A stretch of 64,000 bases of DNA from Sulfuricurvum sp. (GTDB lineage Bacteria; Campylobacterota; Campylobacteria; Campylobacterales; Sulfurimonadaceae): NCBI RefSeq assembly GCF_023250475.1, contig NZ_JAHFAQ010000001.1:134-64133 (forward strand), read 5' to 3'. The translations under genes were made by a program, and so were the position numbers. Each line of letters starts with the position of its first letter. Positions within the stretch are counted from its first letter, which is position 1. Below are positions 35,001 through 53,195 of the stretch, in pieces. The notes under the pieces were generated by a model. It saw only the letters and a list, made by a program, of their open reading frames with translations. It was not told the DNA's origin and searched no databases.

Positions 35001-35450
35001 TTAGACTTTGACATCAACCGGTCCTGAATGTAAAGCATCTAATTTGACAAGCACTTCAAGCACTTGTTTATTATTTTGCAGACTTTGAGTGTCACCGAGT
35101 TTTTTATTCATCTCCATACGCGCTTTGAATTCAGAAATCAGATCATAGTTTCCATTACTGTCAGGTGCTGTAAGCATGGCTGAGCCTACACCCATTTGGC
35201 TGGGATCAAAAGATAAAATTGCATGCTCTTTTAGGCTAATATTACCCGAATCATAAAGTTCCTGAGACAGGGAAACAGTTGCATCAAGACTCATAGAATG
35301 AACATTGTAGTTCTGAGCCGTGGTATAAATTCTTTCCGAAGAGACAGCTGTTTCTAATACATTTTGGCTTTCAGATCGCTGTTTCTGTTGTCTGGTTGCT
35401 GAATATAGTTCCGACGAAGTGGTTACTTGCAATGCCCCAATTGTATTCAT
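35001..35450 (-). CDS. Hypothetical protein
   Basis: 149-aa ORF with AGGAGA RBS and a sigma54-type promoter. Confidence 0.7.
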   Translation of the reverse strand: MNTIGALQVTTSSELYSATRQQKQRSESQNVLETAVSSERIYTTAQNYNVHSMSLDATVSLSQELYDSGNISLKEHAILSFDPSQMGVGSAMLTAPDSNGNYDLISEFKARMEMNKKLGDTQSLQNNKQVLEVLVKLDALHSGPVDVKV

Positions 35451-44829: not shown

Positions 44830-46095
44830 CTAAAGCAGCTCTAATTTATACAGAAACAACCGCTCTTTATACGAGGGGATATCGAGTTCCTGACGGTATT
44901 TGGCGATCACACGGCGTACCATTTTGACTCCGAAACGCTCTTCGATCATCTCATGAAGCGTTTTATCGCTAAAGGGGTCATCTTTATTCTCACTGGATAC
45001 GAGACGTTTCAGAAAATGTTTGATCTCCGATGTGGAGACTTCGCCGATCGAGTTGGAAAAAAAGTCTTTAAACGCATACAGTCCCCGCTCAGTTTGGATA
45101 TATTTATCGGCAATTGCACGGGAAATCGTCGATTCGTTGAATCCCAGTTCATCCGCAACATCCTGAAGACGGAGAGGCTTGAGTTCTCCCCCCATAAAAA
45201 AGCCGTACTGCTTCTCAATAAGAACCAATGCGACATTGTAAAGGGTCGCTTTGCGCAGGTCGAGTAGTTTGACAAGTTCCCGCGCTTCTTTGAATTTTTG
45301 GCGGGCAAAGTTATCGTATTTATCGATCATATTCACCTGCAAATCGGGATAAAATGCATGATTGATACGGATATTCAGTTCCGACCCCGCAAATTCGACA
45401 AACAGATCGGGGGTAATCTGCGTTTCCGGTTCCATATATTCCAAAGCAGGCGGATTTCGAAGATGCTGCAACACCGATTTGGCGTCATGCAAGCGTGGAT
45501 GGTTGATAAATTTCTCCATCTTGTCAAACTGCAAGATCATCGCCCCCAGCAAGATACTCAATTCATCATCCAAATCATAATCGCTGAGTTGAAATAAAAA
45601 CGACTCCTTATAATCGACCGCTCCGACACCCGAAGGCTCCAAATGGGCGAATCGCTGACGAACTCTTTCTACGGTATAAGCATCGGTATCGCACTGCTGC
45701 GCCACCTCTTCCACCGATCCCTCGAAATACCCTTCATCATTAATATAGTAGACAATCTGACGGGCAATCTTTTGCGATATAGGGGTCGGAAACAGCGGCG
45801 CTACAATCTGTTCATCAAGTTTTTCATAAAGAGAGGCGGAAGAGATACTGAGCCATTCGATCTGATCGCTTGAAGCGTTGGAAACATAGTTTTGAAATGC
45901 ACCGTAGGCCGAAGTGCCTCCAACGCCGGAATTGGACTCTTCAAAACCCGACTTGACTTCCAAACAAGGGTTTTCGTTCGTAATAACTTGCAGGTGTTTT
46001 TCGAGATCGTTCAGAGAGCATTGCAGCAACGGCAACCACGTCTGCATCGATAATCTTGGTAATTGTTTTTGTTTATAAGAGAGTGTTGTTTGCAT
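44830..46095 (-). CDS. rpoN: RNA polymerase sigma-54 factor (divergent RpoN box)
   Basis: WLPLLQ, ENP.LE, EPSGVGA, PLRLQDVADELGFNESTISR, RRVIAKYR; start adjusted to ATG 46095. Confidence 0.92.
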   Translation of the reverse strand: MQTTLSYKQKQLPRLSMQTWLPLLQCSLNDLEKHLQVITNENPCLEVKSGFEESNSGVGGTSAYGAFQNYVSNASSDQIEWLSISSASLYEKLDEQIVAPLFPTPISQKIARQIVYYINDEGYFEGSVEEVAQQCDTDAYTVERVRQRFAHLEPSGVGAVDYKESFLFQLSDYDLDDELSILLGAMILQFDKMEKFINHPRLHDAKSVLQHLRNPPALEYMEPETQITPDLFVEFAGSELNIRINHAFYPDLQVNMIDKYDNFARQKFKEARELVKLLDLRKATLYNVALVLIEKQYGFFMGGELKPLRLQDVADELGFNESTISRAIADKYIQTERGLYAFKDFFSNSIGEVSTSEIKHFLKRLVSSENKDDPFSDKTLHEMIEERFGVKMVRRVIAKYRQELDIPSYKERLFLYKLELL

Positions 46096-46235
46096 AATAA
46101 TCCGCCTAAATAAATACACACTTACACAATCAAATGCATATTTTGTTCTTATGGAAAGTATAGGCTTTTTTTAAGCAGTATTATGATCAAAAAATAGGCA
46201 GTTTCTATTCGTGGTGAGCGTATCGAAATATGGTA

Positions 46236-46323: not shown

Positions 46324-46614
46324 TTAGTATTTAATGCGTACCAATCCATTTGGTGCGACGACTTTCATCTGACAAGCAAGACGGGCTTTAGGGTTGCTTT
46401 CATTAAGCGTTTTAAGTACCGCTTTCTCTTTATCCGTTGTAGGGCTCATATACTCCATACCGGATTCGATCATTACGACACAGGTACCGCATTCGCCGTC
46501 ACGGCATCCGAACGGAAGTGCACTACCTGAAGCTTCAACGATATCTTGGATCGTTTTGCCCGGTATGACGTTGATCGCCAAAAAGTCATTCATAATTTCT
46601 ACACGTGTTGTCAT
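46324..46614 (-). CDS. [2Fe-2S] ferredoxin, nif-associated
   Basis: FGCRDGECGTC...RLACQ. Confidence 0.88.
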   Translation of the reverse strand: MTTRVEIMNDFLAINVIPGKTIQDIVEASGSALPFGCRDGECGTCVVMIESGMEYMSPTTDKEKAVLKTLNESNPKARLACQMKVVAPNGLVRIKY

Positions 46615-46702
46615 CCCAACTCCTTTTATACGATTATGATATTAGCCGCAAGGGCACCAATTCTTCATGATACTATATGCAAAAATCTCAGAAAAGAGCG
46701 TT

Positions 46703-47149
46703 CTATTCCCCCTCTTCGTGAGATTGCGCCGCTTTTTCAGCGGCTTTCTTGGCGCGGTGTTCTTTGATCCATCGTAGTTCTTCGGCGACCTCATCATAGC
46801 CGTCATCCTCAAGAGCGCTCTCCAGCTCCCCTTCACGGCATCCGAATATCAGCCCCTCTTCGATGAAATTGACTTCATAAACCCGTATCGTCTGCAAAAA
46901 ATCACCGATGGCACGAACGTATCCTTCGGCACCCGCTTCAACAAGAGTCTCGCCGACCCCCGCATGAGGATAGGTTCCGTCATTACGGATCGTTTTGGTC
47001 AATCGCACCCTCTGACCGACTCGATAAAGAGAAAGGATCTCGTCTTTGGTCGACATTTTGTAGAGATTGGTTTTCCGCGATGCCTCATCAATCGGCATAT
47101 TCTCTTCAGAAAGTGACGGTGTTTTGGCTGACACAGGCGTGGACTCCAT
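46703..47149 (-). CDS. nifZ: Nitrogen fixation protein NifZ
   Basis: GQRVRL.K.IRNDGTYP...GE.LV..G.EGYV..IG.FLQ...VY.V.F.....GCREGEL. Confidence 0.88.
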   Translation of the reverse strand: MESTPVSAKTPSLSEENMPIDEASRKTNLYKMSTKDEILSLYRVGQRVRLTKTIRNDGTYPHAGVGETLVEAGAEGYVRAIGDFLQTIRVYEVNFIEEGLIFGCREGELESALEDDGYDEVAEELRWIKEHRAKKAAEKAAQSHEEGE

Positions 47150-47480
47150 GACTGACCTCCTCTACGCTGCTACAGCTGCTTGATGTGGAACAGGTACCGC
47201 AAGCGCTCGGCTTGTCGAACATTTCCCAGACATCGGCGGCTGATGGGCTATAGCCGTTTTCAAAATTTTTGTAAACGGTAATAAGGGCGAATTTATAATA
47301 TTCGAGCAATTTTTCATCGTTTATGAAATCATGCCCTTTGGCTTTTTCCACTAACTCTCCGAATTTTTTCATCATATGAAAACGTTTTACCTGAACCAAA
47401 CGCTCATCGTATGCAAGATCGAAAAAATCAAAAAAATCTTCGGTATCGGTGATTTTTTGAAATTCAGCTAACGTTCCCAT
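47106..47480 (-). CDS. nifW: Nitrogenase-stabilizing protein NifW
   Basis: EDFFDFF.L.YD...V.VKR.H..KKF. Confidence 0.8.
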   Translation of the reverse strand: MGTLAEFQKITDTEDFFDFFDLAYDERLVQVKRFHMMKKFGELVEKAKGHDFINDEKLLEYYKFALITVYKNFENGYSPSAADVWEMFDKPSACGTCSTSSSCSSVEEVSHGVHACVSQNTVTF

Positions 47481-47490
47481 AACACTCTCC

Positions 47491-48006
47491 TTATAATCCC
47501 ATCTCGCTTTTGAGCTGGGTTGCCCAACCGAGAACTCTCTCTTCGGTCAAATCTTCCTGATTGACATCATCAATCCCTAATCCGCAAAACTTTCCGTCCC
47601 GTTCTGCCAGTGAAAATTCATAGTCGTATCCGCTGGTTGGAATAAATCCGTGTGCTTCGGATCCGAGCGAGACAAAAAGATCGTGCATTTTCCCCAATGC
47701 ACTCAAAAAATGTTCGCCATGCGTCTTTTGATCGCCCGCACCGAAAAAGGCCACTTTTTTACCGCTCAAGTCGGGACGTTCGTTATCCAGTTCATAGAGA
47801 GGGTCAACCCAGTCACGCTGAGGATCCCCTTGTCCCCATGTAGACGAACCGAGGATCAATACGTCGAAATCTTCAAATTGATCGATTCCGTCAAAATCCT
47901 CTTCCATATCGATCAGTTCCGCACCTTTGAACTGCTCTGCCAAAAGCTCTGCCGCTCCACGCGTCACACCGCTGCTGCTACCGAAAAAAATTCCAACTTT
48001 TGCCAT
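47491..48006 (-). CDS. Long-chain flavodoxin (NifF/FldA-like)
   Basis: GIFFGSSSGVT, GSSTWGQGD, FFGAGD, GLGIDDVNQ. Confidence 0.9.
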   Translation of the reverse strand: MAKVGIFFGSSSGVTRGAAELLAEQFKGAELIDMEEDFDGIDQFEDFDVLILGSSTWGQGDPQRDWVDPLYELDNERPDLSGKKVAFFGAGDQKTHGEHFLSALGKMHDLFVSLGSEAHGFIPTSGYDYEFSLAERDGKFCGLGIDDVNQEDLTEERVLGWATQLKSEMGL

Positions 48007-48016
48007 TGTTTACTCC

Positions 48017-48469
48017 TTACCCTTGTTGTATGCACGGTTTGTATTGTTCATAAATCTCAATTGCGCTTGAGAGTGATTTATCTCCGTCTTCGAAGAGTGC
48101 ATCTAGCGTTCGATAACTGAAGCGATGCGCATCTTTAAAATATTTGTTGACGATACAGATACGATCGGCAATGACCGCACATCGTCCGAATCCCTCATGG
48201 CTCATCTCCATAATGACGTTACAGACAACTCCCGTTTTACGCTCGAAAGACAATGCGATCGCTTTATAGATCATCTTGATATCGTTGATCATCATCTCGT
48301 CGATGTCGGCAATCAAAGGAACCAGTTTGATCTCTTCTTTGGTCTTAACATATTTTTTGACCAACAACTCTTCATCACCTATTCTCGCCCAGTTTCCGAA
48401 CTGATCGAGGGCGCGGATCTGACGAACGATCTCAAGACCGAAATCACTTAATTTTGTTTCTGCTTCCAT
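48017..48469 (-). CDS. NifX-associated nitrogen fixation protein (DUF269)
   Basis: QIRALDQFGNW, FER.TG, HEGFGR, DAHRFSY; start adjusted to ATG 48469. Confidence 0.85.
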   Translation of the reverse strand: MEAETKLSDFGLEIVRQIRALDQFGNWARIGDEELLVKKYVKTKEEIKLVPLIADIDEMMINDIKMIYKAIALSFERKTGVVCNVIMEMSHEGFGRCAVIADRICIVNKYFKDAHRFSYRTLDALFEDGDKSLSSAIEIYEQYKPCIQQG

Positions 48470-48494
48470 AATTGGATCCTTGTTTATGTATCGT

Positions 48495-48947
48495 TTATTC
48501 GCCCTCGGCCCAGCGATCCTGTCGCACATCGTGTTCGGTTTGCATTTGCATGATGTTTTTAATCCACGGCGGAGGATTGCCGTTAATCATGGTCACTAAG
48601 TTTTTAAGGACGTCTTCGATCCGCGTCATATCATTTGCTTTCATCGGATGAATCCCCGCACGTATCACTTTTGCCGCAGCGGTTCCGCCGATGCTTTCCG
48701 AATACATGATATTAACTCCCTTGAGGGCACGAACACGATAATCGGTTTTGTCATCATCTTCCGGTTCCGTGCTGTCGGTTTTAATCACTTCTGAGAGTTC
48801 AAATCCCTCTTTGGAAACGTTGTACACAACAAACTCTTTGGCTCCGCCGAAATGGGCATTGATCTCTTCCATATCTTTCGTCGCAAAAGCGACTTTTAAA
48901 GCATTTTTCATTTTCGTATCCCCTTCAATCGTAATTTTAGTGTTCAT
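48495..48947 (-). CDS. nifX: FeMo-cofactor carrier NifX
   Basis: KVAFAT.D...INAHFGGAK.F..Y, IGGTAAAKV..AGIHP, NPPPW. Confidence 0.9.
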   Translation of the reverse strand: MNTKITIEGDTKMKNALKVAFATKDMEEINAHFGGAKEFVVYNVSKEGFELSEVIKTDSTEPEDDDKTDYRVRALKGVNIMYSESIGGTAAAKVIRAGIHPMKANDMTRIEDVLKNLVTMINGNPPPWIKNIMQMQTEHDVRQDRWAEGE

Positions 48948-50235
48948 GCTTGACCTTCCTCAATTCGTTAGCGATCTCGAATAAAAAGTACGTGCTTCCT
49001 TCATACAGTTGATCGTTTTTGAGCTGGTTCCCTAACTCTTCATAGTTCGGGAATCCTCGGATAACGAGCGCCGTATTCTCTACACTATGCAAGATTCGTT
49101 CTGCATGAAAATTACTGATGACCATATCTGCCCCTTCAAAAAATCGTTCTGCATCTTCCAAATCTCCGACGAAAACATTTTCCGCTTCAATGGTGTGGAG
49201 AACATCGCTAAATGTCGTAGACACCGCTGCGGTGATCGTTCCACCGACACTGCGTATGAGTGCGCACATTCCCGAGAGCATATCGGGCTCTCCCGTAATA
49301 ACGAAGTGGGAAGTACCGATAAGAAAATGGGAATCGAGCATTGCATCCTGCAATCGGGCACGCCATCGTTTAATCAACGGTTTCGGCTCAGAGTGTCGTA
49401 TTTTCATGAGCGCACTTACAAAATTGTCACACCCCTCCAACCCCATCACATGATCGAAATGGAGATGCTCGATAAGGGGATTCTTTTTTTGCAAAGCAAG
49501 CGCCGATTTTTTCATAGAAGCACCAAGTGAGACAACAACCGAAGAGGTTGCGAGATCACGTATCTGTTCCACCGTAATCCCGCCGTTTGAGAGTTTCCCC
49601 TGCCCCTCTTCCCAGTATCCGTCGAGGGAAGTAGAGAGATCGGGAAGCGCATACGTTTCAAAACCGAAATCCTCACAAAAACATTTGAGTTTTTCGATCT
49701 CTATAGGCTGCATACTCAGATGAGGCAACAGTACGAGTTTATTCGGTTTTATTCCGGTGGCGGCTTCGGTGATTTGCTCGATCATTGCGGTGACGGTGAG
49801 TGACCATCCGCTCTCCATCCCCCCCTCATAATCGGGAGTATTGACGAATACATAGGGGATTTCGATGTGCATCCCCACACCCCGAACATCATCCCCTTTC
49901 GTCTCCGTCAGTCCCGTCGTGTGCAGACCGATCATGGACGGTTTGAGATTTTTTTCTTTGGACTGAATATTCTCTATCGCCATAAGGATCGAATAATCAC
50001 CGCCGTCGAGAACGGCGGTGATATCGCTGACCGAAGTGTTACGCACGGCGATGGGTTCGTTGAAATGACGTGTGAAGAAAACTTTGGTGTACGAGGCACA
50101 CCCTTGTGCGCCGTGCATGAGGGGCATGCAATCTTTTACCCCTAAAAATGCGAGGGTTGCCCCCATCGGCTGGGAGTGCTTGATCGGATTGACTTGAAGT
50201 GGTTTATGCTCATGACGAGAGAGGGAGAATTCCAT
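48937..50235 (-). CDS. nifN: Nitrogenase FeMo-cofactor scaffold NifN
   Basis: NPIKHSQPMGA, HGAQGCASY.KVFFTRHFNEPI, TTGLTETKGDD. Confidence 0.93.
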   Translation of the reverse strand: MEFSLSRHEHKPLQVNPIKHSQPMGATLAFLGVKDCMPLMHGAQGCASYTKVFFTRHFNEPIAVRNTSVSDITAVLDGGDYSILMAIENIQSKEKNLKPSMIGLHTTGLTETKGDDVRGVGMHIEIPYVFVNTPDYEGGMESGWSLTVTAMIEQITEAATGIKPNKLVLLPHLSMQPIEIEKLKCFCEDFGFETYALPDLSTSLDGYWEEGQGKLSNGGITVEQIRDLATSSVVVSLGASMKKSALALQKKNPLIEHLHFDHVMGLEGCDNFVSALMKIRHSEPKPLIKRWRARLQDAMLDSHFLIGTSHFVITGEPDMLSGMCALIRSVGGTITAAVSTTFSDVLHTIEAENVFVGDLEDAERFFEGADMVISNFHAERILHSVENTALVIRGFPNYEELGNQLKNDQLYEGSTYFLFEIANELRKVKHEH

Positions 50236-50260
50236 GGCAACTCCTTGTTAAAAGGAGTAT

Positions 50261-50277
50261 TGCAAGAAGTGTGCGAG
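50261..50277 (-). promoter_or_regulatory. Non-canonical sigma54-like promoter of nifN
   Basis: CTCGCACACTTCTTGCA: CG-N10-GC in place of GG-N10-GC; 16/17 identical to the nifE motif. Confidence 0.65.
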
Positions 50278-50292
50278 AAGGCTTATTCTAGG

Positions 50293-51123
50293 CTACAGTG
50301 TTTTCTCTCCATAGATATGAACATCTCTCTGCGGATAAGGGATTGTTACCTTCGCATCATTGAGCGCTTTGTAAATCGCCATATTGACCTCATACTGCGT
50401 TTTGAAATAACTTCTCGTCGGAACCCAGTAACGCATCCCGATCTCGACGGCGCTATCTCCGAACTTCTGTATCCCCACAACCGCTTTGTTCTCACCCGAA
50501 AGGCTATCAAAAGCGTCGATTACCCGCTTGATAAGCTCGATCGCTTTTTCGGCATCATCATTATACGAAATGCCGACACTCGATTCGACGATTCGGTAAT
50601 CGAACGAGTTGACGATCACCTCTCCGATCATATTTTTATTGGGGATCGTAATCAGCTCTTCATCTTCGGTTCGAAGTGTCGTATACCCCAGTTTGATCTC
50701 TTCGACGATACCGTAGACTTTATTGACCAAGATCGTATCGCCGAGTTTAAAGGGGCGGGTGATCACCAAGGAGATCCCCGCTGCGAAGTTGGCAACCGTC
50801 CCCTGCAAAGCCAAACCTGCCGTCAGAAAAATAGCACCAACCGCTGCGACAAAAGGGGCGATAGATATGCCGAGCTTCCCGATCGCTATAATAAACATCG
50901 CACCGAATACCAGAATACGGACGACATTAGCTGCGAATTTGCCCAAAGTTGCATCAAAATCGTGCGTACTGAAAAATCGGATTAAAACAGTATAGATGTA
51001 CTTCGAGAGAAACCATCCGATGGTGACGATGATAACGGCACCGATAATTTGAAAACTGTAATTCGTCAAAAACTCTATACTCAGTTCATAAAACTGTTGA
51101 ACGTAATGCAATTCCTGATTCAT
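50293..51123 (-). CDS. Small-conductance mechanosensitive channel (MscS family)
   Basis: GLALQGTVANFAAGI..VITRPFKLGD, IPNK, V.ISY.DD, IPYPQRDVH. Confidence 0.9.
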   Translation of the reverse strand: MNQELHYVQQFYELSIEFLTNYSFQIIGAVIIVTIGWFLSKYIYTVLIRFFSTHDFDATLGKFAANVVRILVFGAMFIIAIGKLGISIAPFVAAVGAIFLTAGLALQGTVANFAAGISLVITRPFKLGDTILVNKVYGIVEEIKLGYTTLRTEDEELITIPNKNMIGEVIVNSFDYRIVESSVGISYNDDAEKAIELIKRVIDAFDSLSGENKAVVGIQKFGDSAVEIGMRYWVPTRSYFKTQYEVNMAIYKALNDAKVTIPYPQRDVHIYGEKTL

Positions 51124-51171
51124 AGTATCTCCTTGACAATCAAAAAGAATATTATGCCCAATTATTTCTCT

Positions 51172-52530
51172 CTACATCTCCCACGGAGCCGGTTTTCCGA
51201 CATTGGCAAAAACAGGATTACGGAACGCGTATTTCAAATCTTCCGCGAGATTGAGCAATCCGCCGTATCCGCCGTAGCTCGTTTTCTTCTCCTGATTGAC
51301 ATCAATAAAGGAGATTTTTTTCTTGATCGCCGTATAGAGACTTCGCCCTCCCGCTAGGAGAATATGTGCCCCTGTAGAATCGATAATTTTTCCCTGCTCG
51401 GAAGCGGGCTTTGTCATCAAAACACCGTTCTCCCCCAAATATTCGCGCGCTTTATCAATATCATCCTGTGTCGATTTGGCAACACTCGTCGCTACCACTT
51501 CGATCCCCAAATCCTGCAACCCCGAAGCAATCGACCACGCTTTGTTTCCGCCGGTATTGAGAACCGCTTTTTTCCCGCTAAAGAGGGCTTTGTACGGAGC
51601 CAATTTCACTTCCAAAGCCGCCTCTTCCTCCGCGATCACGGCTTCGGCACGCGCAATGAGTTCAGGAGATCCCAAAGCGTTCACGATCTCTCGGATAGCA
51701 AACGATGTATCACGCTTGCCGTAAAACGACACCGATATCCACGGGATACCGTACTGCTCCTCCATTTTACGAGTCAACGTAATAAGCGATTTGGCGCAGA
51801 CGATAACATTGAGTTTGGCACGATGTGCCATGCGGATATCGCCTACCCGACCGTCACCGCTTAGTGAGCTGAGGATACGGATGCCGATCTTCTCAAAAAT
51901 AGGTAAATACTGCCACATATCCCCTGTTACGTTGTAATCACCGATAAGATTGATATCGTAAGGGGTTGTTTTTTCAGGCTCTTTCGTACCGATCAGATGT
52001 TCCAATACCGCTTCCCCGGCTAGACGTGAACCGAGATTTTTGCTTCCGACAAAACCTGCCGCATGAACCGGAACGACGGGAATCCCGTGTTTTTCACTTG
52101 CTCTCTTACAGGTCATATCGATATCATCTCCGACAAGTGCCGTTACACACGTCGAATAAACGAAAATTGCTTCGGGACGATAGTTTTCCATAATATAATC
52201 GATCGATGCGTCCAAACGCTTGTCCCCGCCGAATATGACGTCATTGGTCGTGATCCCAGTGGTAAATCCCATCTGGGTATGATCTCGTCCGGGATACGAC
52301 GTTTTTGTCTCACGAGTCTCCCATGATGCTCCCAGACACGTTTGGGGGCCATGAACAAGATGAATGGCATCCGAATATGGGAAAAGGGAAATTTGGGCAC
52401 CGTCAAAAGCGCATCCCCCTGCGGCAAGTCCCGGTTTAGGCTTATCGCACCCCTCTCCCGGTTTTTTCTCTTTGCTGTGTGAACAGGCGCTCTCATTCAT
52501 AAGTTCTTTAATTTTCGCGCGGCTGACCAT
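51172..52530 (-). CDS. nifE: Nitrogenase FeMo-cofactor scaffold NifE
   Basis: GGCAFDGAQI, VHGP..C, YSTCV.AL.GDD, SKNLGSRLAGEA, INLIGDYN. Confidence 0.93.
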   Translation of the reverse strand: MVSRAKIKELMNESACSHSKEKKPGEGCDKPKPGLAAGGCAFDGAQISLFPYSDAIHLVHGPQTCLGASWETRETKTSYPGRDHTQMGFTTGITTNDVIFGGDKRLDASIDYIMENYRPEAIFVYSTCVTALVGDDIDMTCKRASEKHGIPVVPVHAAGFVGSKNLGSRLAGEAVLEHLIGTKEPEKTTPYDINLIGDYNVTGDMWQYLPIFEKIGIRILSSLSGDGRVGDIRMAHRAKLNVIVCAKSLITLTRKMEEQYGIPWISVSFYGKRDTSFAIREIVNALGSPELIARAEAVIAEEEAALEVKLAPYKALFSGKKAVLNTGGNKAWSIASGLQDLGIEVVATSVAKSTQDDIDKAREYLGENGVLMTKPASEQGKIIDSTGAHILLAGGRSLYTAIKKKISFIDVNQEKKTSYGGYGGLLNLAEDLKYAFRNPVFANVGKPAPWEM

Positions 52531-52563
52531 AGGATACTCCTAAAGCTGAAGTATCCTTTCCAA

Positions 52564-52580
52564 TGCAAGAAGCGTGCGAG
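52564..52580 (-). promoter_or_regulatory. Non-canonical sigma54-like promoter of nifE
   Basis: CTCGCACGCTTCTTGCA, CG-N10-GC, 34 nt upstream of the ATG. Confidence 0.65.
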
Positions 52581-52589
52581 CAGAGGCTT

Positions 52590-53195
52590 TTACATTCGTT
52601 TAGTGGCGGTTACCAGAAATATCGGATAGTTTTTGTTCTCTTTCTCAACGCTATGGGCATGATGAAATCGGACATGATCAAATCCCGCTTTTTCAATCGT
52701 TTCACGCAATATCTCTCTCTCAAATCCCAAATGGTAGACTCCCTCATTTCCATGGGAATGGAAAGTTCCGTCTTCCGCTTCAAGATCGGCAATTGCGATA
52801 AATCCGTCTGGTTTGAGATGGTCGTGAAATGCGCTGAATAAAGCTGCCGTGTCTTGGACATGATGCATCGCCATTGAGCTGACAATCCCGTGAAACTGTT
52901 TTTCCAAAGCCTCTTCGCAAATATTTTGACAAATCGCTTCCACATACATATTTTCGGTATTTTTACTCTCCAGCTGCTCCAGCATCTTTTCGGAGAGATC
53001 GACGCCGGCAACACTTTTGACCATCGGAGCGATTTTAAAACTAAGCAGCCCCGTCCCCGCACCGAAATCCAAAATATTCATATGATTTAATAAAGCGATT
53101 CGGCTCGTAATGGTTTGAAAGACGGCTTGGGCGATATTTTGGCGCATATCTCCCTGATCCCATCCCACGGCGGCTTGGTTAAAACGTTCACTCAT
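52590..53195 (-). CDS. Class I SAM-dependent methyltransferase
   Basis: LDFGAGTG, GVDLS, SSMAMHH, IADL..EDGTFH. Confidence 0.88.
   Translation of the reverse strand: MSERFNQAAVGWDQGDMRQNIAQAVFQTITSRIALLNHMNILDFGAGTGLLSFKIAPMVKSVAGVDLSEKMLEQLESKNTENMYVEAICQNICEEALEKQFHGIVSSMAMHHVQDTAALFSAFHDHLKPDGFIAIADLEAEDGTFHSHGNEGVYHLGFEREILRETIEKAGFDHVRFHHAHSVEKENKNYPIFLVTATKRM

Follow-up and report, generated by a model that had tools for sequence, protein, structure and literature searches.

We found that two near-identical 17-bp motifs, lying upstream of the nitrogen fixation genes nifE and nifN in a 64,000-nucleotide (nt) stretch of a Sulfuricurvum sp. genome (contig NZ_JAHFAQ010000001.1, positions 134 to 64,133; hereafter the window), are very likely functional promoters dependent on RpoN (sigma-54). 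The two, here called PnifE and PnifN, would represent a clade-wide variant of the −24/−12 promoter in which C or A takes the place of the first G of the GG doublet, at position −25. The GG of the −24 element counts as a fixed signature of sigma-54 promoters, and regulon predictions depend on it. Across this environmentally abundant family of sulfur-oxidising diazotrophs, C or A stands in for the first G in promoters of nifH, nifE, nifN, nifU and other genes, so that motif scans would overlook nitrogen fixation control in these bacteria. A literature search brought up no work on sigma-54 promoters or on nif regulation for Sulfurimonadaceae, and a 2025 study (Nucleic Acids Res; PMC12096077) remarks that nature offers no known alternative to GG pairing.

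Variant −24/−12 elements upstream of nifE and nifN

The sequence and position of both motifs can be read directly from the window. PnifE (CTCGCACGCTTCTTGCA) occupies positions 52580-52564 and PnifN (CTCGCACACTTCTTGCA) positions 50277-50261, both on the minus strand, where their contexts are ...TAAaagcctctgCTCGCACGCTTCTTGCAttggaaaggatacttcagctttaggagtatcctATG and ...TAGcctagaataagccttCTCGCACACTTCTTGCAatactccttttaacaaggagttgccATG, respectively. As the first-pass annotation of this DNA had claimed, the 17-mers are identical at 16 of 17 positions, the sole difference being the eighth base, which is G in PnifE and A in PnifN. The same annotation gave distances of 34 and 25 nt to the respective start codons; the value for nifN (ATG at 50235) holds, whereas 33 nt intervene between PnifE and the nifE ATG at 52530. 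When up to three mismatches were allowed, PnifE and PnifN were the only matches in the 64 kb (0.24 expected), and at least two matches were obtained in 1 of 100 shuffles.

Compared with TGGCAC-N5-TTGCW, each motif has one mismatch, and both read TCGCAC-N5-TTGCA, with C for the first G. Alignment to TGGCAC-N5-TTGCA thus agrees with the earlier description of exact −24/−12 spacing and a C at this position. In PnifE, the −24 element TCGCAC lies at 52579-52574, with C(−25) at 52578 and G(−24) at 52577, and TTGCA lies at 52568-52564; in PnifN, C(−25) is at 50275, G(−24) at 50274 and GC(−13/−12) at 50263-50262. Because both have CG instead of GG at −25/−24, we class them as variant and not as canonical sigma-54 promoters. 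Other hallmarks of the class are present: GC at −13/−12 within TTGCW (TTGCA in both), 10 bp between the doublets (identical in all relatives), an rpoN gene in the organism, and homology to canonical sites, namely the nifE sites of Sulfurovum-labelled loci and the G/A alternation at nifU, P-II and rpoN described below. The TTGCA is too near the ATG in both cases for a −35 role.

We observed the conservation of the element directly in orthologous loci. A NifE scan over one genome per prokaryotic species yielded 80 loci from Sulfuricurvum, Sulfurimonas, Sulfurovum and related metagenome-assembled genomes (MAGs), the closest NifE being 95% identical to that of the window. All 80 have [N][V]G[N]A[C/T]-N5-[T/A]TGCA upstream of the nifE start, at a distance of ∼30-37 nt from the ATG (60-80 nt in a few), and this promoter element stays in place while the genes upstream of nifE vary. 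The pattern used for extraction preset G at −24, A at −22 and GCA at −13 to −11 and allowed only two or three letters at each of −21, −15 and −14; its chance of matching is roughly 0.02 per 130 nt, and 80 of 80 is far above this. The GC of the TTGCA-type −12 element is likewise invariant at all 80 sites.

The base at −25 behaves differently. Among the 33 Sulfuricurvum-like nifE loci it is C in 21, A in 10, T in 2 and G in none, and among other Sulfurimonadaceae-like loci it is C in 30, A in 8 and G in 1, the latter being a doubtful pick (L072). Sulfurovum-labelled loci have G in 6 cases (TGGCAC or TGGTAC) and A in 2. Parsimony on the NifE tree counted no change at −24, −22, −14, −13, −12 and −11 (several of these preset by the extraction pattern) and 6-9 changes at −27, −26 and −15, with C at −27 and T at −26 strongly conserved; 16 changes fell on −25, compared with 14-28 at spacer positions. 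As judged from these alignments, the nifE element is a footprint in which the sigma-54 consensus bases are invariant and the first G alone evolves like a spacer base.

An equivalent element precedes nifN in all 17 loci in which nifE and nifN stand apart, with 0.7-4.5 kb of other genes between them, and in none of the 40 loci in which the two genes are adjacent (gap of at most 68 nt; Fisher's exact P = 7e-15). This link with operon breaks is a direct observation. At the 17 split loci the element usually ends 24-26 nt before the ATG, and −25 is C in 14 and A in 3. Absence of the motif from orthologous nifE and nifN upstream regions had been named in advance as the result that would count against a function, and we found the opposite. 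The idea that the shared C-for-G deviation is functional gains support from this conservation: by comparison across loci, the C at −25 is not decay, and a base other than G is normal here at nif promoters of Sulfuricurvum/Sulfurimonas-like genomes.

Other promoters of the nif islands follow the same pattern. A second scan, with NifD, supplied nifH upstream regions, which contain TAGAAC or GAGAA[C/T]-N5-(T/A/G)TGCA in 9 Sulfuricurvum/Sulfurimonas-type loci and (T/C/G)GGAAC-type sequences or TGGCTA in 15 loci from Sulfurovum, Arcobacteraceae, Sulfurospirillum and Campylobacteraceae. Proteobacterial control loci have TGGCAC, counting those with a promoter inside the 150 nt displayed. In relatives, sites of the same form also occur before nifU, the P-II gene, rpoN, hemerythrin-like genes and small conserved open reading frames (ORFs). 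Among close relatives, A and G alternate at −25 of orthologous nifU, P-II and rpoN sites, as in cTAGAACGGGATATGCA versus tTGGAACGGGATATGCA at the P-II gene. One nif island of the complete Sulfurimonas sp. HSL-1656 genome combines AGGTAC (nifE), AAGAAC (nifN), TAGAAC (rpoN), TGGAAC (nifU) and GGGAAT (P-II). Since G, A and C forms interchange in close relatives and within one island, one sigma factor would have to accept all three bases at −25, which counts against a strictly orthogonal code.

Sigma-54 and the reading of position −25

The presence of rpoN in the window is likewise observed directly. The gene (44830-46095, minus strand, ATG at 46095) lies in the same cluster, ∼4 kb downstream, and matches TIGR02395 with 319 bits (cutoff, 277) and NF004602 with 486.9 bits, just below the cutoff of 506. 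Its product aligns with solved sigma-54 structures over region I, the core-binding domain, the helix-turn-helix (HTH) and the RpoN box (regions I-III). In the box, VRRVIAKYRQ stands against ARRTVAKYRE of E. coli, Klebsiella and Aquifex, and both arginines are retained. The residue that follows them, "457", is T in 119 of 137 representative sigma-54s, the exceptions clustering among the nearest relatives; Sulfuricurvum-type loci have V or L there, and Sulfurimonas/Sulfurovum-type loci have S. V/L-type loci had G at −25 in 3 of 66 predicted sites and S-type loci in 19 of 96, both rough figures from overlapping loci, and the relation between residue type and −25 usage in these sequences is a weak correlation, no more.

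In the wild-type form of sigma-54, with its preference for GG, R456 reads the second G of the doublet (PMC12096077), and a double Ala/Cys replacement of residues 457 and 458 in the Klebsiella protein abolishes DNA binding (PMC2715252). A change of the RpoN box was considered as the cause of the shift at −25 and rejected, since the two arginines are retained and the box is the same in GG-type Sulfurovum as in CG-type Sulfurimonas loci. Tentatively, and as a possibility that we do not favour, the nif-island RpoN of Sulfurimonadaceae, and partly of Sulfurovaceae, may be naturally relaxed or shifted at the −24 element, reading V-G (V being A, C or G) and not G-G, in a manner tied to loss of the near-universal T (ARRTVAKYR to VRR[V/L/S]IAKYR). 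If this were true, weaker closed complexes at nif promoters could result, perhaps barring their firing by enhancer-independent flagellar FlgR. These promoters offer a natural test case for which sigma-54 protein-DNA contacts are dispensable.

A further explanation would make the rpoN beside the nif genes a nif-dedicated sigma-54 paralogue whose −24 preference has moved off GG, its circuit being kept apart from that of a second RpoN, a flagellar one reading TTGGAAC-type promoters. In ∼130 distinct related loci, rpoN of this family was always found in a nif neighbourhood, and in two scans every readable flank of a close relative consisted of nifN...ferredoxin or P-II/nifU genes; the peptide patterns of these scans were specific to this RpoN family, and the sample consists of close relatives. 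Well-known Sulfurimonas isolates were absent among these relatives, although RpoN and FlgRS are reported for all Campylobacterota with the F3 flagellar type (PMC9321776). A dedicated paralogue would also suit the score just under the Campylobacterota RpoN equivalog cutoff, the V/L/S in place of the recognition-helix T, and the lack of G at −25 in all 33 Sulfuricurvum-like nifE sites. We nevertheless consider it unlikely, because GG, AG and CG forms swap at orthologous promoters of close relatives and because GG and non-GG sites share one nif island in a complete isolate genome, so that the same sigma factor must accept G. The conserved arginines and the identical box of GG- and CG-type loci point the same way, and the second rpoN is hypothetical. 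Should it exist, two sigma-54s could divide the nif and flagellar regulons.

Known systems provide partial parallels. Nif-specific RpoN proteins of Rhodobacter (R. capsulatus nifR4; R. sphaeroides RpoN1) are similarly encoded in the nif cluster, and rpoN of the relatives seemingly lies behind its own sigma-54-type promoter as well; unlike these paralogues, however, the present system has GG and non-GG promoters in one island. Engineered orthogonal sigma-54/promoter pairs (R456H/Y/L; PMC12096077) share with PnifE and PnifN an altered −24 element that works with sigma-54, established in the engineered case and predicted here by sequence; in those pairs the second G and its arginine are changed, whereas here the first G varies and both arginines are kept. 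Sigma-54 flagellar promoters of Campylobacter and Helicobacter (TTGGAAC-N5-TTGCTT, activated by FlgR) resemble our system in phylum, in a short RpoN (∼420 aa), in the GAFTDA loop of the activator and in a frequent A at −23, but they keep GG and serve flagellar genes, in contrast to the nif genes and the C or A at −25 described here.

A degenerate −24/−12-like site, ATAAGAACAAAATATGCA (ATAAGAAC..ATGCA), is located 39 nt before the rpoN ATG in the window (46135-46152, minus strand). Relatives have CTAGAAC or CTGGAAC-N5-(T/A)TGCA before rpoN, and this site suggests that sigma-54 boosts its own gene there during nitrogen fixation.

Activation, transcripts and leader hairpins

From comparative sequence, we infer that PnifE and PnifN depend on sigma-54 and NifA, and we place their start sites accordingly. 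RNA polymerase with sigma-54, most simply that encoded by rpoN 4 kb downstream, would contact G(−24), A(−22), C(−21) and TTGCA (−15 to −11). The closed complex would wait until a NifA-type AAA+ activator opens it when nitrogen is limiting, and transcription would begin ∼12 nt after the GC, near 52553 for nifE and 50250 for nifN. Replacement of the first G by C or A would mean that only the second G is required in Sulfuricurvum/Sulfurimonas-like genomes. This scheme resembles the classical proteobacterial NifA/sigma-54 promoters, such as those of Klebsiella nifH and nifE, in its genes, −24/−12 architecture and spacing, in the TTGCA −12 element, A(−22), C(−21) and short leaders, and in a NifA-type activator (GAF, AAA+, HTH_8), encoded here in nif islands of relatives. 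It departs from the classical arrangement, TGG-N8-TTGCA with an upstream TGT-N10-ACA, in that the first G is C (A elsewhere in the family) and TGT-N10-ACA is lacking; further differences from classical NifA systems are GAFTDA instead of GAFTGA in the activator of relatives and the location of rpoN inside the nif cluster.

An example of the activator is found in a relative (L085, 421-2058, minus strand), upstream of nifH. This 545-aa protein has GAF, Sigma54_activat, AAA-lid and HTH_8 domains and scores 507.9 against the NifA equivalog, just under the cutoff of 528.85. NifA-like genes are present in nif islands of relatives, namely L085, L192 (10374-11261, minus strand), L201, L297 (19114-20709, minus strand) and L298; the island of the complete Sulfurimonas isolate genome is among those with this gene. 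In a Sulfuricurvum MAG, a fragment 77% identical to the L085 protein is found at a distance of 5 kb from rpoN. In this family the sigma-54-contact loop reads GAFTDA and not the usual GAFTGA, as described for FlgR of Campylobacterota (PMC3162934). The first-pass annotation had suggested that the activator may be nonstandard. Its class appears standard, since relatives encode a NifA-like activator; the suggestion does hold for the missing classical site and the GAFTDA loop.

No TGT-N10-ACA, the classical NifA upstream activator sequence, occurs within 300 bp upstream of PnifE or PnifN, in line with the earlier inspection by eye. At orthologous nifE promoters it occurs in 3 of 80 cases, which is the background rate (0.05 per 300 nt), and k-mer enrichment upstream of the nifE promoters of related loci returned nothing besides the promoter element. 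Candidate sites were found elsewhere in the nif islands of relatives, where a palindrome, (T)GACAA-N1-2-TTGTCA or ACAAATTTGT, occurs before nifH, before nifW and between nifU and the P-II gene. More broadly, the region 30-100 bp upstream of the promoters of nifH, nifW and nifU/P-II contains a conserved block (CTGCA..ATTCYTACAAWTTTGT) as well as TTGTC boxes and palindromes, TGACAATTTTGTCA for example (L082-L090 and L104 upstream of nifH; L297 at ∼8100 and ∼11700). By their conservation in relatives, the block, boxes and palindromes are a candidate replacement for the TGT-N10-ACA site. Near nifE and nifN in the window, none of these elements is present, neither the nifH-type block nor the TGACAA..TTGTCA palindrome.

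Several points weigh against PnifE and PnifN as sigma-54 promoters. The first of the two Gs is regarded as nearly invariant and as important when sigma-54 binds. The 200-300 bp upstream of either motif yielded no activator-binding site. The only RNA-labelled runs over the region (X1-X4; "metagenomic RNA-Seq") are assembled Logan contigs, which have flat depth across genes and spacers and no piled-up read ends and so give no 5′ ends. With regard to the missing site, the activator could reach both promoters from solution or from a distant site; FlgR of Helicobacter and Campylobacter is known to act without an upstream enhancer, and such a mode would agree with the failure to detect a site here. 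A joint in run X4 connecting 52553 to 50261 was considered as a rearrangement and rejected, being best explained by mapping of the nifE promoter of a related strain that carries the A variant seen at the nifN copy.

Both leaders can also fold. Hairpins over the ribosome-binding sites of nifE (52531-52557, minus strand; −13.3 kcal/mol, z = −3.9) and nifN (50240-50258, minus strand; −7.4 kcal/mol, z = −3.2) pair an anti-Shine-Dalgarno stretch with the ribosome-binding site. A transcript from the predicted start would lack the 5′ arm, entirely for nifN and for the most part for nifE, so that only read-through RNA would be masked. The leader hairpin recurs in many relatives, with one compensatory case (CTCTCC/GGAGAG in L042); a consensus fold of the nifE leaders gave no common structure.

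These stable hairpins overlap the stretch between motif and ATG, and the start sites are predictions; the motif might thus be the site of another DNA-binding regulator or an RNA-level element and not a promoter. We consider this very improbable, given that the invariant bases and the spacing are those of the sigma-54 consensus, −25 excepted, and do not follow the hairpin arms, and that a textbook TGGCAC-N5-TTGCA stands at the same place in sister taxa. The motif is not palindromic, and no Rfam family matched in the region. Moreover, the hairpin arms lie downstream of TTGCA and several relatives keep the motif without the hairpin, which means that the hairpins do not explain the conservation. 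The promoter reading of PnifE and PnifN is directly testable, since Sulfurimonas sp. HSL-1656 and other relatives are in culture and have complete genomes.

The nifE|nifN junction and neighboring genes

On the minus strand, the gene order is methyltransferase, PnifE, nifE, MscS gene, PnifN, nifN, nifX, NifX-associated protein, flavodoxin, nifW, NifZ-domain protein, 2Fe-2S ferredoxin, rpoN and dinB (NCBIfam and Pfam assignments). nifE (51172-52530; TIGR01283, 520.7 bits, cutoff 505.1) and nifN (48937-50235; TIGR01285, 381.7 bits, cutoff 326.8), the first gene of the downstream nif operon, are separated by a gene for an MscS-type mechanosensitive channel (50293-51123; NF047602/NF007662). The genes from nifX to the ferredoxin occupy 46324-48947, all on the same strand, and the order of this nifN-downstream operon is kept in ∼200 related loci. 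Upstream, the S-adenosylmethionine-dependent methyltransferase gene (52590-53195, minus strand) ends 9 nt short of PnifE and thus lies outside the promoter. Neither nifHDK nor nifA nor flagellar genes were found in the 64-kb window, and a PROSITE-type signature turned up no flagellar rod or hook genes in any fetched locus.

PnifE would drive nifE and probably also the inserted MscS gene. No sigma-70-type promoter or terminator was detected between genes on the minus strand, and the MscS gene is probably cotranscribed with nifE because none of its own was detected. PnifN would restart transcription of nifN-nifX-...-ferredoxin, since the insertion split the ancestral nifEN unit; the split nif operon would in this way have been repaired by a second promoter copy. 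The cargo at the junction varies and includes MscS, TetR plus YceI (in the complete Sulfurimonas isolate genome) and others. Because the cargo differs between split loci, the promoter travels with nifN and not with the insert, and in the genomes compared insertions recur at the nifE|nifN junction, a hot spot of this family. In relatives with adjacent nifE and nifN, an MscS paralogue lies upstream of the methyltransferase. That the nifN copy is a functionless by-product, carried by the MscS cassette or duplicated by chance, is scarcely credible: the 16/17 identity and a likeness extending a few bases upstream (AAGCCT) would suit it, but nifN has this promoter and leader in front of it regardless of the cargo, the promoter is never present where nifE and nifN adjoin, and without PnifN the nifN-X-W-Z genes would rely on read-through across foreign genes.

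Three relatives (L003, L013 and L024) have an insert of ∼75 nt between PnifN and the nifN start, the promoter lying ∼110 nt before nifN. The insert contains TGGCAC-N6-TTGC, one base too wide for a sigma-54 site, and a GC-rich hairpin, and it may be a small mobile element.

Elsewhere in the window, an orphan ORF of 149 aa (35001-35450) had no Pfam match and no relatives among 185,579 species genomes. A canonical Campylobacter-type site, TTGGAATAAATATTGCT, is located 28 nt before it (35495-35479, minus strand).

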